This document shows, piece after piece, positions 2,037-53,520 of a stretch of 64,000 nt of DNA. The notes beneath the pieces were generated by a model that saw nothing but the letters and a program-made list of their open reading frames with translations, was not told the DNA's origin and did not search any database. Positions within the stretch are counted from its first letter, which is position 1. The number at the start of each line of letters is the position of its first letter. This DNA comes from Octopus vulgaris (lineage: Eukaryota), in NCBI GenBank assembly GCA_951406725.2, contig OX597815.1, positions 169,012,001 through 169,076,000 on the forward strand, written 5' to 3'. Made by a program: the position numbers and the translations under genes.

Positions 2037-2791
2037 TTTACCCCTTCCCCATCAAGCGATTGATGTGCGTGTGTGTGCGTGTGTGTGTGTGTGTGTAAGA
2101 AAAAAGATTTACTGAGAGAAAAGGGTACTACTGAAGAAGAGTGGTCCCGGTGCGCGCACTCGCGTAGTCGCGCATCCGCGCTACCTAGTCGTGACTAGTC
2201 GATCCTAACTTTGTGCTTTTGTATTTTATTTACTTTGTTTAGAAAATTATTTACTCTGTGTTTTTGTGTTTTATTTACTTTGTGTAAAAAAAATATTTAG
2301 GTACTTGTCTATTGTCGTGGTCCCGGTTTCGCACACGCGAATTCGCGCGCGCGCGCCAGACGTAGGTACTCGATACTCGAGATCCTACGAGGTGACTTGC
2401 GCATGCGCAGTGCAGAATTCGCGCATGCGCATTAACCCCCCTAAAAAAAAAGGTGTTGGATTTCACTAAAAATATATATGTGTGTGTGTGTGTGTGTATA
2501 TATATAACATTTTCAATTTTACACAAAAAAATTACATAGTCGCTTTCCTCGCGGATTTACAGATAAATGAATTAATTACTATTTTACAGAATAAAATTAA
2601 TGAATTAATTATATAAATTAAATAATTCTTGAAAATTAATTAATATTAATAATATTTTTTGAACAAAGTAAATAATTTATAAAACTTGGTTAATAATTTT
2701 TTTTACACAAACGCGAACGTATATAATTTGTGAAACTTTTTTTTTTTACAGACGTATATAATTTGGTAAACTTAATGAATTAATTTCTTCT

Positions 2792-3210
2792 CATCATCAT
2801 CATCGTTTAACGTCCGTTCTCCATGCCAGCATGGGTTGGACGGTTCGACCGGGGATCTGGGAAGCCAGAAGGCTGCACCAGACTCCAGTCTTATCTGGCA
2901 ATGTTTCTACAGCTGGATGCCCTTCCTAACGCCAACCACTCCGAGAGTGTTGTGGGTGCTTTTTACATGCCACCCGCACAGGTGCCAGGCGAGGCTGGCA
3001 ACGGCCACGGTCGGATTGGTGCCAGTCGAGGCGGCTCTGGCATCGGCCACGATTCGGATAGTGCTTTTTACGTACCACCAGTCCAGGGGTCCTGGCATTT
3101 GCCGGGTGCCACACTTGCCCCAACATGTCTTCGCAAGCAAAGGGGGTTGGCGTGGGTGCCTGTCGTGGGATGAGGTTCGATATCAACTTCGCTTGCCTCA
3201 ACAGGTCTTT
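2792..3210 (-). mobile_element. RTE-tailed retroposon with (GAT)n tail, in left foldback arm
   Basis: Ends in ...GGACGTTAAACGATGATGATG on the minus strand, the same 3' end as many dispersed copies in the window. Confidence 0.8.
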
Positions 3211-4259
3211 GTGTATAAATGTATAAATTTTTCGCACTAAATTCTTTCCGTAGAATTTATCAAAAAACGCGCAAAATTATTCCGTAGAATTTATCAAATT
3301 AAAAAACGCAAAATTAATATATTTTTTGAAATTGCAAATTATTTAGAATATAAAACAAATGAAGTTAAATTTTAAAAATAAATGTCATATACTTATACTC
3401 TGTAAGGTGCTGTGTTCACACTTCAATTTACTATTTTCTAGAAATGTTGCTTTTCTAATTGAAACAATTTTTCTCAATCTCCATTTAAAAGTCCATCATG
3501 CCTCTTGAGCCATATCAAAATGAACAACTTTGAATTACGCGGCGGCGGTGGTGGTGTGAGGTTCTAATTTTTTTTTTTGATCTCTCTTTGCCCCCTCTTT
3601 ATCTCAGTTGTTCATTCCGCTAATATTTAGAAAAATTTTCGCGCCCAATTTTTGTTGTCGCGGGAAAAGATGAACGATTTAAAATAAATATATCTTAATT
3701 GTAGTGTGAGAAAGTATATATATTCTGATGACAAAATATATTATCTTTCAAAAACATCCCAAATTTATAGACTATATCGTGTAGGTTTAAGAAATATATA
3801 TATATATATATATAAGAGAATGAAACATCTTTCATCTGTCTCCCCACCACACCTCCATCTAGGGGGGCAAAAAGAGATCAGAAAAAAAAATTAGAACCTC
3901 ACACCACCACCACCACCACCACCGCCGCCGCGTAATTCAAAGTTGTTCATTTTGATATGGCTCAAGAGGCATTATGGACTTTTAAATGGAGATTGAGAAA
4001 AATTGTTTCAATTAGAAAAGCAACATTTCTAGAAAATAGTAAATTGAAGTGTGAACACAGCACCTTACAGAGTATAAGTATATGACATTTATTTTTAAAA
4101 TTTAACTTCATTTGTTTTATATTCTAAATAATTTGCAATTTCAAAAAATATATTAATTTTGCGTTTTTTAATTTGATAAATTCTACGGAATAATTTTGCG
4201 CGTTTTTTGATAAATTCTACGGAAAGAATTTAGTGCGAAAAATTTATACATTTATACAC

Positions 4260-4677
4260 AAAGACCTGTTGAGGCAAGCGAAGTTGATATCGAACCTCAT
4301 CCCACGACAGGCACCCATGCCAACCCCTTTGCTTGCGAAGACATGTTGGGGCAAGTGTGGCACCCGGCAAATGCCAGGACCCCTGGACTGGTGGTACGTA
4401 AAAAGCACTATCCGAATCGTGGCCGATGCCAGAGCCGCCTCGACTGGCACCAATCCGACCGTGGCCGTTGCCAGCCTCGCCTGGCACCTGTGCGGGTGGC
4501 ATGTAAAAAGCACCCACTACACTCTCGGAGTGGTTGGCGTTAGGAAGGGCATCCAGCTGTAGAAACATTGCCAGATAAGACTGGAGTCTGGTGCAGCCTT
4601 CTGGCTTCCCAGATCCCCGGTCGAACCGTCCAACCCATGCTGGCATGGAGAACGGACGTTAAACGATGATGATGATG
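4260..4677 (+). mobile_element. Mirror copy of the RTE-tailed retroposon, in right foldback arm
   Basis: Near-identical reverse complement of 2792-3210 at the equivalent arm position. Confidence 0.8.
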
Positions 4678-5569
4678 AGAAGAAATTAATTCATTAACTT
4701 TACCAAATTATATACGTCTGTAAAAAAAAAAAGTTTCACAAATTATATACGTTCGCGTTTGTGTAAAAAAAATTATTAACCAAGTTTTATAAATTATTTA
4801 CTTTGTTCAAAAAATATTATTAATATTAATTAATTTTCAAGAATTATTTAATTTATATAATTAATTCATTAATTTTATTCTGTAAAATAGTAATTAATTC
4901 ATTTATCTGTAAATCCGCGAGGAAAGCGACTATGTAATTTTTTTGTGTAAAATTGAAAATGTTATATATATACACACACACACACACACATATATATTTT
5001 TAGTGAAATCCAACACCTTTTTTTTTTAGGGGAGGGGTTAATGCGCATGCGCGAATTCTGCACTGCGCATGCGCAAGTCACCTCGTAGGATCTCGAGTAT
5101 CGAGTACCTACGTCTGGCGCGCGCGCGCGCGAATTCGCGTGTGCGAAACCGGGACCACGACAATAGACAAGTACCAATATTTATTTTGTGTTTTATTTAG
5201 TTTGCCAGGTAGTCGTTGTAGGATCGACTAGTTACAGCTAGCTAGTGCGGATGCGCGACTACGCGAGTGCGCGCACTGGGACCACTCTTCTTAAGTAATA
5301 CCCAGAAAAGTATTCTGTCCAATGAATTAGCTTTTACAGACCTTCTTTAAGTCACCTTGTCGCCTTAATGAAATTCTTTACACACATGAACACACTCATA
5401 CACGTACGCACACAGCGCGATGTACATATAGGGAAATATTGAGAGAGAGCGGGAAGCTTACAATAAGAAAAGCGAAATATGAAAGAGATAGACAAATAGA
5501 GTGATCTTTTCTGTTGCTTGTCACAGATACTGAAACTTTAAAAGCAAGTGAAAATTTTCAAATTTGGTA

Positions 5570-5940
5570 TATTACTCTTTACTCTTTTACTCTTTTACTT
5601 GACTGCGGCCATGCTGGAGCACCGCCTTTAATCGAGCAACTCGACCCCGGGACTTATTCTTTTGTAAGCCCAGTACTTATTCTATCGGTCTCTTTTGCCG
5701 AACCGCTAAGTAACGGGGACATAAACACACAGACACACAAACACACACACGCATATATATATATATACATATACACTACGGGCTTCTTTCAGTTTCCGTC
5801 TACCAAATCCACTCACAAGGCTTTGGTCGGCCCGAGGCAATAGTAGAAGACACTTGCCCAAGATGCCACGCAGTGGGACTGAACCCGGAACCATGTGGTT
5901 GGTAAACAAGGTACTTACCACACAGCCACTCCTGCGCCTA
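5570..5940 (-). mobile_element. tRNA-derived CORE-like SINE (family A)
   Basis: A box TGGCTGTGTGG, B box GGTTCAGTCCC, CORE-like CTTGGGCAAGTGTCTT, central (CA/TA)n and a (TAAAAGAG)n tail. About 20 copies in the window. Confidence 0.85.
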
Positions 5941-8175: not shown

Positions 8176-8329
8176 TCTTTTTTCTTCTTTATCTTTCTCC
8201 TTTTTTTTTTTGTTTTTCGTTTGTATAAATTATTCAATGAAATATTTCATTCTATACGCATTCAATAAATTAATCGATATATATTATTTTTATTTTTTAC
8301 ATTGTTTGTGTAAGAAGCCATCGATATAT

Positions 8330-10265
8330 ACTCTTTTATTCTGTTACGTGTTTCAGTCATTTGACTGCAGCCATGCTGGAGTACCGCCTTTATAGTCGAA
8401 CAAATCGACCCCAGAGCTTATTCTTTGTAAGCCTAGTATTTATTCTATCGGGTCTCTTTTGCCGAACCGCTAAGTTACGGAGATCTAAAGGGGTGAACTT
8501 GGCCCTGAAATGGGGGCTGCACACAATTGAGATCCGGACGGATTCAGCCACTGTGCTTGGCTGGGTAGGATCGGTGATCACCGGTGAAAAGAGAGTGCGG
8601 ACGAAAGGTGCCGCGGAGATGTTAGTGAAGCGCCGTCTAGGAGTTCTAGGTGAATTGATCGCCGAGTTCGGACTGAAGCTGAATGTGGTTTTCGTGCCTT
8701 CGGAGAAAACAGGGCGGACGCACTGACCAGGGTGAAACGAGCGTGGTTGGAAGAACCGGAGGAGGCCCGGAAAGGGATAGCTGCGACGTGTCGGTTGGAT
8801 GACTCCGAACTGAAGAGACTGCACACTATGCATCACCTGGGTGTGGACAGGACCCTGTATCTGGCGAAGAAAATTGATGCTGACGTCACTAGGAGAAGCA
8901 TCCGGAAGGTGGTCGGGAGCTGCGACAGGTGTCAGTCCATCGACCCTGCTCCGTGTGGGCATGAACAGGGAAGCCTTTCGGTGGAGCAGAACTGGAAAAG
9001 GCTAGCTGTGGATGTGACGCACTACCGTCAGGGAATGTACCTCTCCATGGTCGACTGCGTGCCAGGCCGGCTGGCCATTTGGAGGGAGTTAAGAACGGGC
9101 ATTGCTGATGAGATCGCGTAGATCCTGAACGGGATATTTTTAGAGAGAGGTCCCGTGGAAGAACTACTGATGGACAACGGGGCGGCGTTTCGTTCGGAAG
9201 CATTGAGGGTTATGCTTGATCGGTGGAATGTGCGTCGCTTGTTCAGAGCAACGTATAGGCCGAGCGGTAACGGGATCGTGGAGAGGCACCATCGGACAGT
9301 CAAGGCCATAGCGGAAAGAGGGCACATTTCGCCGCTTGAAGCAGTTTTTTGGTACAACTTGTCTCCCCGATCCGGACAAGCTGAGGAATCTGTGCCGCAG
9401 AGAGCTGTGTTCAAATATGAATGGAGGCACCCGAGCAAAGCGCCGGAGGGTCACGAGGAAGAGAAGGGACCCGTTCGCGTGAAAATAGTGAGGAAGTCTG
9501 AGTTAAGCCACCAAAGGCGCGCTGTACGTCTCAATGGAGTAGAGGAAGGGTGACGGCGGTCAATTCCAGAAACAACGTATCCGTGGATGGAATGCCGCGA
9601 CACGTCTTGGACCTTCGTAGGATTGTCGCTTCGACGGACGACGATTCTGGAGAGGGGGAGAACGAGGTGCCCAGCTTGAGAAGATCCCTCCCGGTTGCAT
9701 GGTGGACTACGACATGGAACGGAGAGATTGTGATCTTTAAGATCAGGGTGGCGTGTGGGATGACGTCAGCAGCTGGGTGCGTTGACCGGAAGCTGGGGCA
9801 ATCGGAAGGGTCAGCAGTGAGGCGTGCGCATCAGCGGGGATTTCGGCCTTTCCAACGTGGGTCATCGAGGTGTTAAGACGTGTGAAGACGTTGCTAAGGT
9901 TGGGTGAAGCAGCTGCTATCTTTAGCGTTCGGGTCGGGGCTGTGACGAAGGATTCGTTACCACTGAAGGGTCTCTATCGGAGCGAAGAGAAGGTAGGTGC
10001 CTTTATATATCAACTATTTCGCACACACCACACTAAACACACCAGCATCGGTTGTCAAGCAATGCTGGCGGGACAAACAGACACACAAACATATATATAC
10101 AACGGGCTTCTTCCAGTTTCCGTCTACTAAATCCACTCACAAGGCTTTGGTCGGCCCGAGGCTGTAGTAGAAGACACTTGCCCAAGGTGCCACGCAGTGG
10201 AACTGAACCCGAAACCATGTTGTTAGTAAGCAAGCTACTTACTACACAGCCACTCCTACGCCTAT
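8330..10265 (-). mobile_element. Family A SINE split by the Gypsy fragment (8330-8480 and 10034-10265)
   Basis: The two halves join at TAAGTTACGG / TAAACACACCAGC, with only a few bases missing. Confidence 0.8.
8482..10032 (+). mobile_element. Gypsy/Ty3 LTR retrotransposon 3' fragment (RNase H end, integrase, PPT, 3' LTR); disabled
   Basis: RNase H-like IEIRTDSATVLGWV; integrase HHCC (HTMHHLG...CDRC) and D (AVDVT), D (MDNGAAF), E (GNGIVERHHRT); stop and frameshifts. LTR TGTGG...CCACA at 9754-10032 follows a purine-rich tract. Confidence 0.9.
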
Positions 10266-11106: not shown

Positions 11107-11282
11107 GGGGTACTACTTAAGAAGAGTGGTCCCGGTGAGCGCATCCGCGCTAGCTAGTCGTGACTAGTCGATCCTACAACTACTACCTAGCAAAGTAAAT
11201 AAAACACAAAGTAAGGATCGACTAGTCACGACTAGCTTGTGCGAGTGCGCGCACCGGGACCACTCTTCTTAAGAAGTACCCC
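11107..11282. mobile_element. Intact short Merlin-like MITE (same family as 2124-5302, opposite orientation)
   Basis: TIR GGTACTACTTAAGAAGAGTGGTCCCGG/CCGGGACCACTCTTCTTAAGAAGTACC, flanked by the 8-bp direct repeat CCCCCTTT. Confidence 0.85.
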
Positions 11283-39983: not shown

Positions 39984-40479
39984 TATATTTTATTATAAAT
40001 GCAAAACAACACCACAGAGGAATTGATGTAAGCTTAAACAATAAACCGCGATATGGCAAAGGATTACTGTGATTAAAATTTGGTATTGGTGTAATGTTTC
40101 TTCACTGGTGCAGTTTGCTTTAAATTTATACACACTATTCAACCACTGCATTGATTACCTTCCCTAGCTTTCTTCTCCACTCACCTACCCAACTTATTCC
40201 CATTCCCCTCTGCTCTTTCTGCCATCACACCTCTGCTCTCTATATTTGCACTTAAAAACCAACTGTACACACAACCACAGCCACACACCACAAGGAAGGT
40301 GACAAGAAACTGGAAGTCTACAAAGATAAGATTGTTCCTATGTGCCTGGGAAATTGCAGAAGGTGATTTGCCAAATAATTTAATTACAGCTGCCATGAAG
40401 AGCAATGGTTTCTCCAGATCTGTGGCACAAATAGAGCAGAAGAAGAATGAGTTCATCCGATCTTATGGGTAGTGAAGCA

Positions 40480-48389: not shown

Positions 48390-49276
48390 TAGATTGATTG
48401 ATTGATTGATAAAGTAACTGATGGATTGATTGATTGATTGATAAAGTGACTGATGGATTGATTGTTTGATAAAGTGACTGATGGATTGATTGTTTGATAA
48501 AGTGACTGATGGATTGATTGTTTGATAAAGTGACTGATTGATTGATAAAGTGACTGATGGATTGATTGATTGATAAAGTGACTGATGGATTGATTGATAA
48601 AGTGACTGATGGATTGATTGATAAAGTGACTGATGGATTGATTGATAAAGTGACTGATGGATTGATTGTTTGATAAAGTGACTGATGGATTGATTGTTTG
48701 ATAAAGTGACTGATGGATTGATTGTTTGATAAAGTGACTGATTGATTGATAAAGTGACTGATGGATTGATTGATTGATAAAGTGACTGATGGATTGATTG
48801 ATAAAGTGACTGATGGATTGATTGATAAAGTGACTGATGGATTGATTGATAAAGTGACTGATGGATTGATTGATAGAGTGACTGATGGATTGATTGATAA
48901 AGTGACTGATGGATTGATTGATTGATAAAGTGACTGATGGATTGATTGATTGATAAAGTGACTGATGGATTGATTGATAAAGTGACTGATGGATTGATTG
49001 TTTGATAAAGTGACTGAGAGATAGGTTGATTGATAGGGCGAGAAGTTGATTGATAGAGAGGGAGGTTGATGGATAGAGCGAGAGGTTGATGGATAGGTAG
49101 GGCGATGGTTTGAGAGCTAGGTAGGGCGATGGGTTGATGGATAGGTAGGGCGACGGGTTGAGGGACAGGTTGGACAACGGGTTGAGGGACAGGTAGGGCG
49201 ACAGGTTGATGGATTGGTAGGGCGATGGGTTGAAGGATAGGTAGGGCGATAGGTTGAGAGATAGATTGATTGATTG
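48390..49276. repeat. Minisatellite ATAAAGTGACTGATGG(ATTG)n with 20/24/28-bp units, grading into a G-rich variant
   Basis: Direct reading. A 204-bp higher-order block is repeated. Confidence 0.95.
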
Positions 49277-52948: not shown

Positions 52949-53520
52949 TATTTCTTTACTGCCCACAAGGGGCTAGACACAGAAGGGACAAACAAGGACA
53001 GACAAAGGGATTAAGTTGATTATATCGACCCCAGTGCATAATTGGTACTTATTTAGTCGACCCCAGCAGAATTTGAACTCAGAACGTAGCAGCAGACGAA
53101 ATACCTATTTCTTTACTACCCACAAGGGGCTAAACATAGAAGGGACAAACAAGGACAGACAAAGGGGTTAAGTTGATTATATCGACCCCTGCATAAGTGG
53201 TACTTATTTAGTCGACACCGAAAGGATGAAAGGCAAAGTCGACCTCAGCAGAATTTGAACTCAGAACGTAGCAGCAGACGAAATACCTATTTCTTTATTA
53301 CCCACAAGGGGCTAAACATAGAAGGGACAAACAAGGACAGACATAGGTATTAAGGCGATTACATCGACCTCCATGCGTAACTGGTACTTAATTTATCGAC
53401 CCCAAAATGATGAAAGGCAAAGTTGACCTCGGCGGAATTTGAACTCAGAATGTAACGGCAGACGAAATACCATTAAGCATTTCACCTGGCATGCTAATGT
53501 TTCTGCCAGCTCGCCACCTT
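52949..53520 (-). repeat. Tandem trimer of family B SINE
   Basis: Three ~160-230-bp units with identical junctions GACGAAATACC|TATTTCTTTA. Confidence 0.8.

Follow-up and report, generated by a model that had tools for sequence, protein, structure and literature searches.

The 64,000-nt stretch of Octopus vulgaris DNA considered here (contig OX597815.1 of assembly GCA_951406725.2, positions 169,012,001 to 169,076,000; hereafter the window) contains at 2300-5175 a foldback element, in which two long inverted arms enclose a short spacer. The element lies within a miniature inverted-repeat transposable element (MITE), and each of its arms carries a retroposon and a sequence resembling the transposase of the Merlin superfamily. 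The parts of the element and its target-site duplication (TSD) are as follows.

2300..5175: foldback element, 2,876 nt in total, of which the arms make up 91%
2300..3596, + strand: left arm, 1,297 nt
3861..5175, - strand: right arm, 1,315 nt, repeating the left arm in inverted orientation
3597..3860, no strand: unpaired spacer, 264 nt, AT-rich
2292..2299, no strand: left 8-bp TSD, AATATTTA
5176..5183, no strand: right 8-bp TSD, AATATTTA
2300..2326, + strand: terminal motif GGTACT-N11-GTGGTCCCGG at the left end, common to the host MITE family
5149..5175, - strand: terminal motif at the right end, identical to the left

Global alignment of the left arm with the reverse-complemented right arm gives 1,290 matches, 6 substitutions, and 20 gap columns. 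The substitutions amount to 6 in 1,296 paired sites (divergence 0.46%, or ~99.5% alike), and every gap falls within a microsatellite or homopolymer run. The low divergence suggests youth, though conversion can reset divergence. No other inverted repeat in the window is as long or as well matched. The termini read GGTAC...GTACC and are bordered on both sides by AATATTTA, a duplication that stops at 8 bp with the ninth position unmatched; the chance of its recurring at a fixed second position is ~2.5e-4 at the local base composition. The inverted repeat, its ends, and the perfect 8-bp TSD reported in a preliminary description of this DNA are thereby confirmed, with the spacer measured at 264 nt.

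Very long terminal inverted repeats (TIRs) form most of the element, which possesses neither coding capacity nor a transposase domain, as in Foldback-like elements. The Foldback (FB) elements of Drosophila contain subterminal tandem-repeat arrays. The octopus element differs from FB in this respect: Tandem Repeats Finder (score 50) detects no array within 2300-5175, where the direct repeats are short and AT-rich.

A CpG-rich subterminal block is situated at 2328-2432 and 5041-5147, with self-complementary GCGCATGCGC motifs that we take to be NRF1-like candidates, and a similar CG-rich block follows the shared terminal motif in the host MITE. The spacer contains TTTTCGCGCCC and GCGGGAAAA at 3636-3669; both presumably are candidates for E2F sites, which they resemble, and this stretch is possibly a leftover promoter. 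A bacterial promoter scan of the spacer, a method unsuited to animal DNA, stayed at chance level, and three weak microRNA matches in Rfam, driven by microsatellites and far under threshold, were discarded.

Transposase remnant, retroposon and host MITE

Six-frame translation, followed by a short-word search of the sequence supplement of PMC8101967 (file 2), identified two short pieces of Merlin transposase in each arm.

3958..3987, + strand: remnant piece 1 in the right arm, WLKRHYGLLN (WLKRHGLLN in Octopus Merlin proteins, compared by eye)
3996..4055, + strand: remnant piece 2 in the right arm, RKIVSIRKATFLENSKLKCE, reading toward the right end
3483..3512, - strand: remnant piece 1 in the left arm, WLKRHDGLLN
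3415..3474, - strand: remnant piece 2 in the left arm, the mirror copy, reading toward the left end

In the right arm, piece 2 starts 8 nt after piece 1 and in a different frame. RKIVSIRKATFLENSKLKCE is identical to the Octopus Merlin protein XP_029648038.1 at 18/20 residues, as counted by eye without a computed alignment, and in that protein WLKRHGLLN is followed 32 residues on by RKTVSIRKGTFLENSKLKCE, the same order as in the remnant. A 6-residue word served as the search seed; of the other 14 residues, 12 match, for which the chance is roughly 2e-13 per position. WLKRH and SKLKC occur at 6 and 9 places, respectively, in the protein file of PMC8101967, and in both cases the five matches listed all belong to Octopus. 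Judged by eye, the two ordered N-terminal pieces are homologous to Merlin transposase.

The remnant is a deleted, frameshifted N-terminal piece that points outward in both arms, which places the source of both arms on the downstream side of the start of the open reading frame (ORF). Neither arm holds an intact transposase ORF; the transposase sequence comes to ~100 bp per arm, deleted and diverged. Pfam does not find DDE_Tnp_IS1595 in the six frames of 2100-5341, and the element is non-autonomous because it has no intact domain of this kind. When eight short motifs of Octopus Merlin, taken from its downstream and DDE regions, were searched for, the window gave only scattered matches outside the element, none of them in a Merlin context. 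A possible C-terminal remnant just past piece 2 (HLTEY, compared with HLIEF in Octopus) was rejected as too short to count, with 0 exact matches.

Both arms also carry the same retroposon, which ends in a (GAT)n tail and represents either a short interspersed nuclear element (SINE) or the end of a 5'-truncated long interspersed nuclear element.

4256..4680, + strand: retroposon, right-arm copy, ~425 bp, 5' limit approximate
2789..3214, - strand: retroposon, left-arm copy, mirror of 4256-4680

The retroposon is a dispersed repeat: the rest of the window yields 17 local matches to it (70-93% identity). Its 5' limit is marked in public contigs by a rise in depth and by loose ends just before 4256, and no clean TSD was found around it. 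Since one retroposon occupies mirrored positions, a single insertion was copied across from one arm to the other.

The surrounding sequence is a MITE in two halves, for which the window holds a short relative.

2124..2299, + strand: host MITE, left part, with a GGTAC end and the 8-bp flank GAGAAAAG at 2116-2123
5176..5302, - strand: host MITE, right part, ending in ATACC, with the 8-bp flank CAGAAAAG at 5303-5310
11109..11280, no strand: short palindromic relative of the host MITE, with no insert

After the insert and one TSD are discounted, the host MITE (2124-5302) measures 295 bp; over 85 nt its arms show 91% complementarity, and its 8-bp flanks agree at 7/8. The pattern GGTACT-N(9-12)-GTGGTCCCGG has five matches in the window and 0 in 100 shuffles. 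The five sites are both foldback ends, the left end of the host MITE, and both ends of the relative at 11109-11280, and therefore the foldback element and the host MITE share terminal sequence. The right end of the host MITE departs from the pattern at two bases. From arm identity and TSD quality, the foldback element would be the younger insertion of the two. Compared with metagenome contigs, the terminal 27-mer gave 0 matches.

Two smaller observations concern the same families. The TSD of the relative at 11109-11280 is ambiguous, both flanks being C/G runs, and CCCCCTTT repeats with ends two bases wider. The motif TTATTTACTTTG is present in the foldback arms (4785-4815, with its mirror near 2655-2685) and in the interior of the host MITE (2217, 2262, and 5184), which on sequence grounds would be a further link between the two families.

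The ends could belong to another superfamily that has long TIRs or an 8-9-bp TSD (Mutator/Foldback, hAT, or P), with the Merlin fragment as captured cargo. In hAT and P elements the first bases are usually CA or TA, and Mutator typically makes a 9-bp TSD, neither of which agrees with this origin. It would suit captured cargo that long TIRs are typical of other superfamilies (PMC4168063, PMC3573991) and that no autonomous element with both these ends and a Merlin ORF was seen. On the other hand, GG ends and an 8-bp TSD are as expected of Merlin, which is described by terminal GG and an 8-9-bp TSD (PMC8101967). Moreover, the terminal motif recurs in a second family of the window, with a 7/8 flank match, and Merlin is abundant in Octopus. 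We therefore regard captured cargo as very unlikely. The Merlin assignment of the preliminary description is supported by the transposase remnant as well as by ends and TSD. Its terminal motif, GGNRM, accommodates GGTAC, but the passages of PMC8101967 consulted give terminal GG only.

Public sequencing runs

Public sequencing runs that match part of 2100-5320 (20 of 24 listed) fall under four organism codes, and none is recorded as RNA. Four of them (X1, X3, X4, and X13, all contigs) were compared with 3560-5620, except for the stretch 3785-3937, which was skipped; a zero-depth bin at 3836-3904 falls inside it and is uninformative. A 31-letter rule decided whether a contig bridged a junction. 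Contig depth does not equal copy number, and rare variants are lost from contigs.

Outside the retroposon, near-identical contigs of the arms reach a depth of 526-842 in X4 and 4,673 in X3, and an X4 contig across the 5' junction of the retroposon has a depth of 865. The corresponding depths are 224 (X4) and 1,412 (X3) for contigs at the spacer start, 7-9 (X4) and 29-61 (X3) for diverged pieces, and 22 (X4) and 234 (X3) for the unique-flank bin. The depth points to a multicopy family whose arms number roughly between ten and a hundred, with two or more per spacer. The arm:spacer ratio of 2.3-3.9 in X4 and 3.3 in X3 fits two arms per element together with further derivatives. Part of the spacer (3666-3782) recurs in the runs as older copies ~90% alike. 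A 426-nt contig of X13 bridges 243 nt of arm into the spacer; the spacer-start contigs of X3 and X4 hold only 5 and 28 arm letters, below the bridging rule.

These ratios bear on the possibility that a one-armed Merlin derivative inserted here and that the palindrome arose later at this locus alone, so that the two-armed form never moved. One-armed elements would be expected to give an arm:spacer ratio of ~1, against the values above, and both ends of the element terminate exactly at the TSD. Recent local copying would fit the 99.5% likeness of the arms and a base other than C that they share at 5042 and its mirror 2431, whereas all depth at 5042 in the runs shows C (4/4 runs); a second two-armed copy was also not observed directly. 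The shared base is suggestive, as arm-to-arm copying predicts such sharing, and it concerns one CpG site in contigs that drop rare variants. Altogether, we consider a palindrome of purely local origin unlikely.

Joints in the runs provide further glimpses of the family. Joints 4814-5178 and 4815-5178, the latter present in 4/4 runs, attach the right flank to an AT-rich motif, which agrees with the true left flank at 19 and 20 of 24 positions. They read like interiors of the host MITE with the target present once, i.e., empty sites. Another joint, from 4202 to 4743, skips the retroposon and its flanks at a depth of 1,948 in X3 and 280 in X4, is absent from X1 and X13, and suggests a sister form without the retroposon. 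Variants at 3618 and 4109 are found in X1 and X13 and are absent from X3, X4, and the window, which suggests lineage-specific subfamilies. At position 4698 all four runs have the left-arm base, and therefore the right arm carries a private change.

The private change is also of interest for the authenticity of the second arm. Near-perfect palindromes are a known long-read artefact, and the junction between right arm and spacer lies in the skipped stretch, so that an assembly or fold-back read error might be considered as the source of this arm. Yet the symmetry stops exactly at the 8-bp direct repeat, and the flanks outside are unmirrored and continue as the two halves of an older MITE. The arms differ, moreover, at six sites and in several repeat lengths, and the change at 4698 belongs to the right arm itself. 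An artefact is thus extremely improbable.

Assembly and mobility of the element

We consider it quite probable that the foldback element is a non-autonomous Merlin DNA transposon of octopus that consists of one end in duplicate and is mobilised in trans. It was likely cut and pasted by transposase from intact Merlin copies elsewhere. The anatomy seen directly suggests that a Merlin element first lost most of its transposase, with two short N-terminal pieces left. A retroposon would have inserted downstream of these pieces, presumably before the next step, in which the ~1.3-kb downstream end, with remnant and retroposon, would have been copied in inverted orientation over the upstream end. Such copying, again suggested by the visible anatomy, would account for the remnant pointing outward in both arms; it may have come about by template switching while a gap was repaired, or by conversion from arm to arm. 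The symmetric product would then have been amplified into a small, young family, as read depth indicates, and one copy would have inserted into an older MITE whose ends are related, as the arrangement at the locus suggests.

Several points weigh against this reading, in addition to the narrow basis of the shared base at 5042. A common family origin of remnant and termini is assumed, and no autonomous partner with the same ends is seen in the window. The 49-aa arm peptide, a short, single-frame query that covers piece 2 only, has no match in Pfam, and three protein searches with it (a word-index search, ESM Atlas, and phmmer over cluster representatives at E 0.001) came back blank. Copy estimates from depth are rough, 6-29 spacers and 20-111 arms, with a span that depends on the baseline; arm:spacer ratios above 2 also mean that other structures share the arms. 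Among the contigs listed in the four runs, none joins an outer end of the element to the locus flank by 31 letters, and none reads as a second full copy with a different TSD. The sides of the 4814/4815-5178 joints are only 21-24 nt long. The 4202-4743 joint indicates a family of mixed structure, in which arm copying may have come before or after retroposon insertion.

The Foldback-like, non-autonomous character proposed earlier is borne out by the length of the arms and by the missing DDE_Tnp_IS1595. Two further proposals hold in part. The term "non-coding" is accurate in that there are no intact ORFs, but the arms do contain a transposase remnant. Movement as a unit agrees with the perfect TSD, with the MITE-type interiors in which the target is present once, and with multicopy depth, but the TSD of a second copy was not seen among the contigs listed. 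If the two-armed form transposes, Merlin transposase can act on two copies of the same end.

Relation to known elements and other features of the window

The element resembles members of the Merlin superfamily, which is related to IS1016/IS1595 and includes the Octopus proteins XP_029648038.1 and XP_029646117.1, in its GG termini, 8-bp TSD, and N-terminal remnant. It differs from classical Merlin elements in that the DDE core is absent and the coding remnant is duplicated in both arms. According to the original description cited by PMC8101967, Merlin TIRs measure 24-462 bp, a range that is descriptive rather than defining; the arms here reach 1,297 and 1,315 nt. The zebrafish elements Merlin-1_DR and Merlin-N5_DR are listed in Repbase with TIRs of 1,000 bp (PMC8101967 supplement), and therefore long arms are not new for Merlin. 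The rarity of long Merlin TIRs implied by the preliminary description was thus overstated. Merlin-N5_DR is non-coding, with no conserved domain and with mirrored internal repeats (PMC8101967 supplement). According to their table entries, the zebrafish elements have tandem arrays; the octopus element has no long tandem arrays, and its arms cover 91% of its length.

The closest parallels in construction come from other superfamilies. Galileo, a P-superfamily element of Drosophila, has TIRs of up to 1.2-1.6 kb, lengthened by the recruitment of internal or ORF sequence and by a second transposable element (TE) copied into both (PMC4168063, PMC3573991); recruitment of ORF sequence into TIRs has been called unique to Galileo (PMC4168063). 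Its Foldback-like copies share with the octopus element long TIRs that include ORF sequence and a second TE in both. Galileo belongs to another superfamily, however, and takes up the last part of its ORF, whereas the piece here is N-terminal, a leftover from deletion of the core. Seven sublineages of mariner MITEs arose when the 5' part replaced the 3' part (PMC4161770). The mariner MITEs of Drosophila (Dromar7, 11, 28, and 36) are similar in that one end is replaced by an inverted copy of the other, the TIRs are long, and the product was amplified. They are short, however, and their 5' part replaces the 3' part, whereas the outward remnant here suggests that a part of the 3' side replaced the 5' end. 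The building of long-armed elements known from Galileo and mariner, including recruitment of ORF sequence into both arms, is thereby extended to Merlin.

Merlin accounts for 191 proteins in O. bimaculoides and, according to the PMC13282606 supplement, for 18 families in O. vulgaris, and among the molluscs analysed it is mostly restricted to cephalopods (PMC10294476). Two recent Merlin families of O. vulgaris comprise 11 insertions totalling 28,998 bp, ~2.6 kb each (PMC13282606). The foldback family may already be catalogued in the O. vulgaris TE library of that study. A young GG-ended family points to a recently active Merlin in octopus; any tie between this element and the recent O. vulgaris families would be hypothetical. 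In literature searches for Merlin with Foldback, Merlin with long TIRs, or Octopus Merlin with SINE, which do not cover most subscription journals, no title or opening of an abstract describes this anatomy.

Long palindromes can promote rearrangements and form double-stranded RNA (dsRNA), both of which are only predicted for this element, as are the cruciform and the ADAR or siRNA substrate proposed in the preliminary description. Folding of the inner 1,271 nt gives a single long stem of -903.7 kcal/mol, a value without a shuffle control; such folding is expected of any repeat of this kind and is trivially favourable. Mu killer of maize has one end in duplicate, together with part of a transposase gene in inverted form (PMC3440606), and the octopus element likewise has two copies of one end with inverted partial transposase sequence. 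Mu killer, however, is transcribed and silences MuDR; the octopus element has ~100 bp of homology, is apparently multicopy, and is known from DNA alone.

By analogy, read-through transcription might produce a ~1.3-kb hairpin and small RNAs directed against intact Merlin copies, for which the long stem would be suited. The stem holds only ~100 bp of transposase sequence, deleted and diverged, and no host exon was identified around the element among the ORFs scanned. The apparent recent multiplication, as we infer it, also argues against strong silencing of the element's own transposase. We thus hold a Mu killer-like silencer to be quite improbable. The same doubt, to the same degree, attaches to the broader notion of a mobile animal Mu killer, i.e., a multicopy Merlin derivative of two identical ends that would still transpose and whose 1.3-kb dsRNA, formed at any copy crossed by read-through transcripts and comprising transposase and terminal sequence of Merlin along with the abundant retroposon, would feed small-RNA silencing and ADAR editing against Merlin and the retroposon. 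Element-to-flank depth ratios are 24 in X13, a run guessed to be RNA, 32 in X3, 55 in X4, and 388 in X1, and contigs cannot settle expression. Nor can they settle editing: for X13 no A>G class is listed, and the listed T>C places also occur in DNA runs.

Elsewhere in the window, a Pfam scan of the arm peptide and of 53/65 stop-to-stop ORFs of at least 100 aa (the 12 left out being nearly all microsatellite or tandem arrays) gave no transposase and no convincing host exon. Ordered weak Pfam matches to RVT_3, Integrase_H2C2, and rve at 8274-9550 (E 0.048, 0.0061, and 0.0017, all below cut-off) probably represent the decayed pol remnant of a long terminal repeat retrotransposon. A weak Myb/SANT-like match at 40155-40469 (E 0.035, below cut-off) is possibly a Harbinger-type remnant, or due to chance. 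Adjoining GA-rich minisatellites with periods of 24-28, 20, and 24 occupy 48392-49264, and a 182-bp unit is repeated in 2.3 tandem copies, 90% matched, at 53055-53471.

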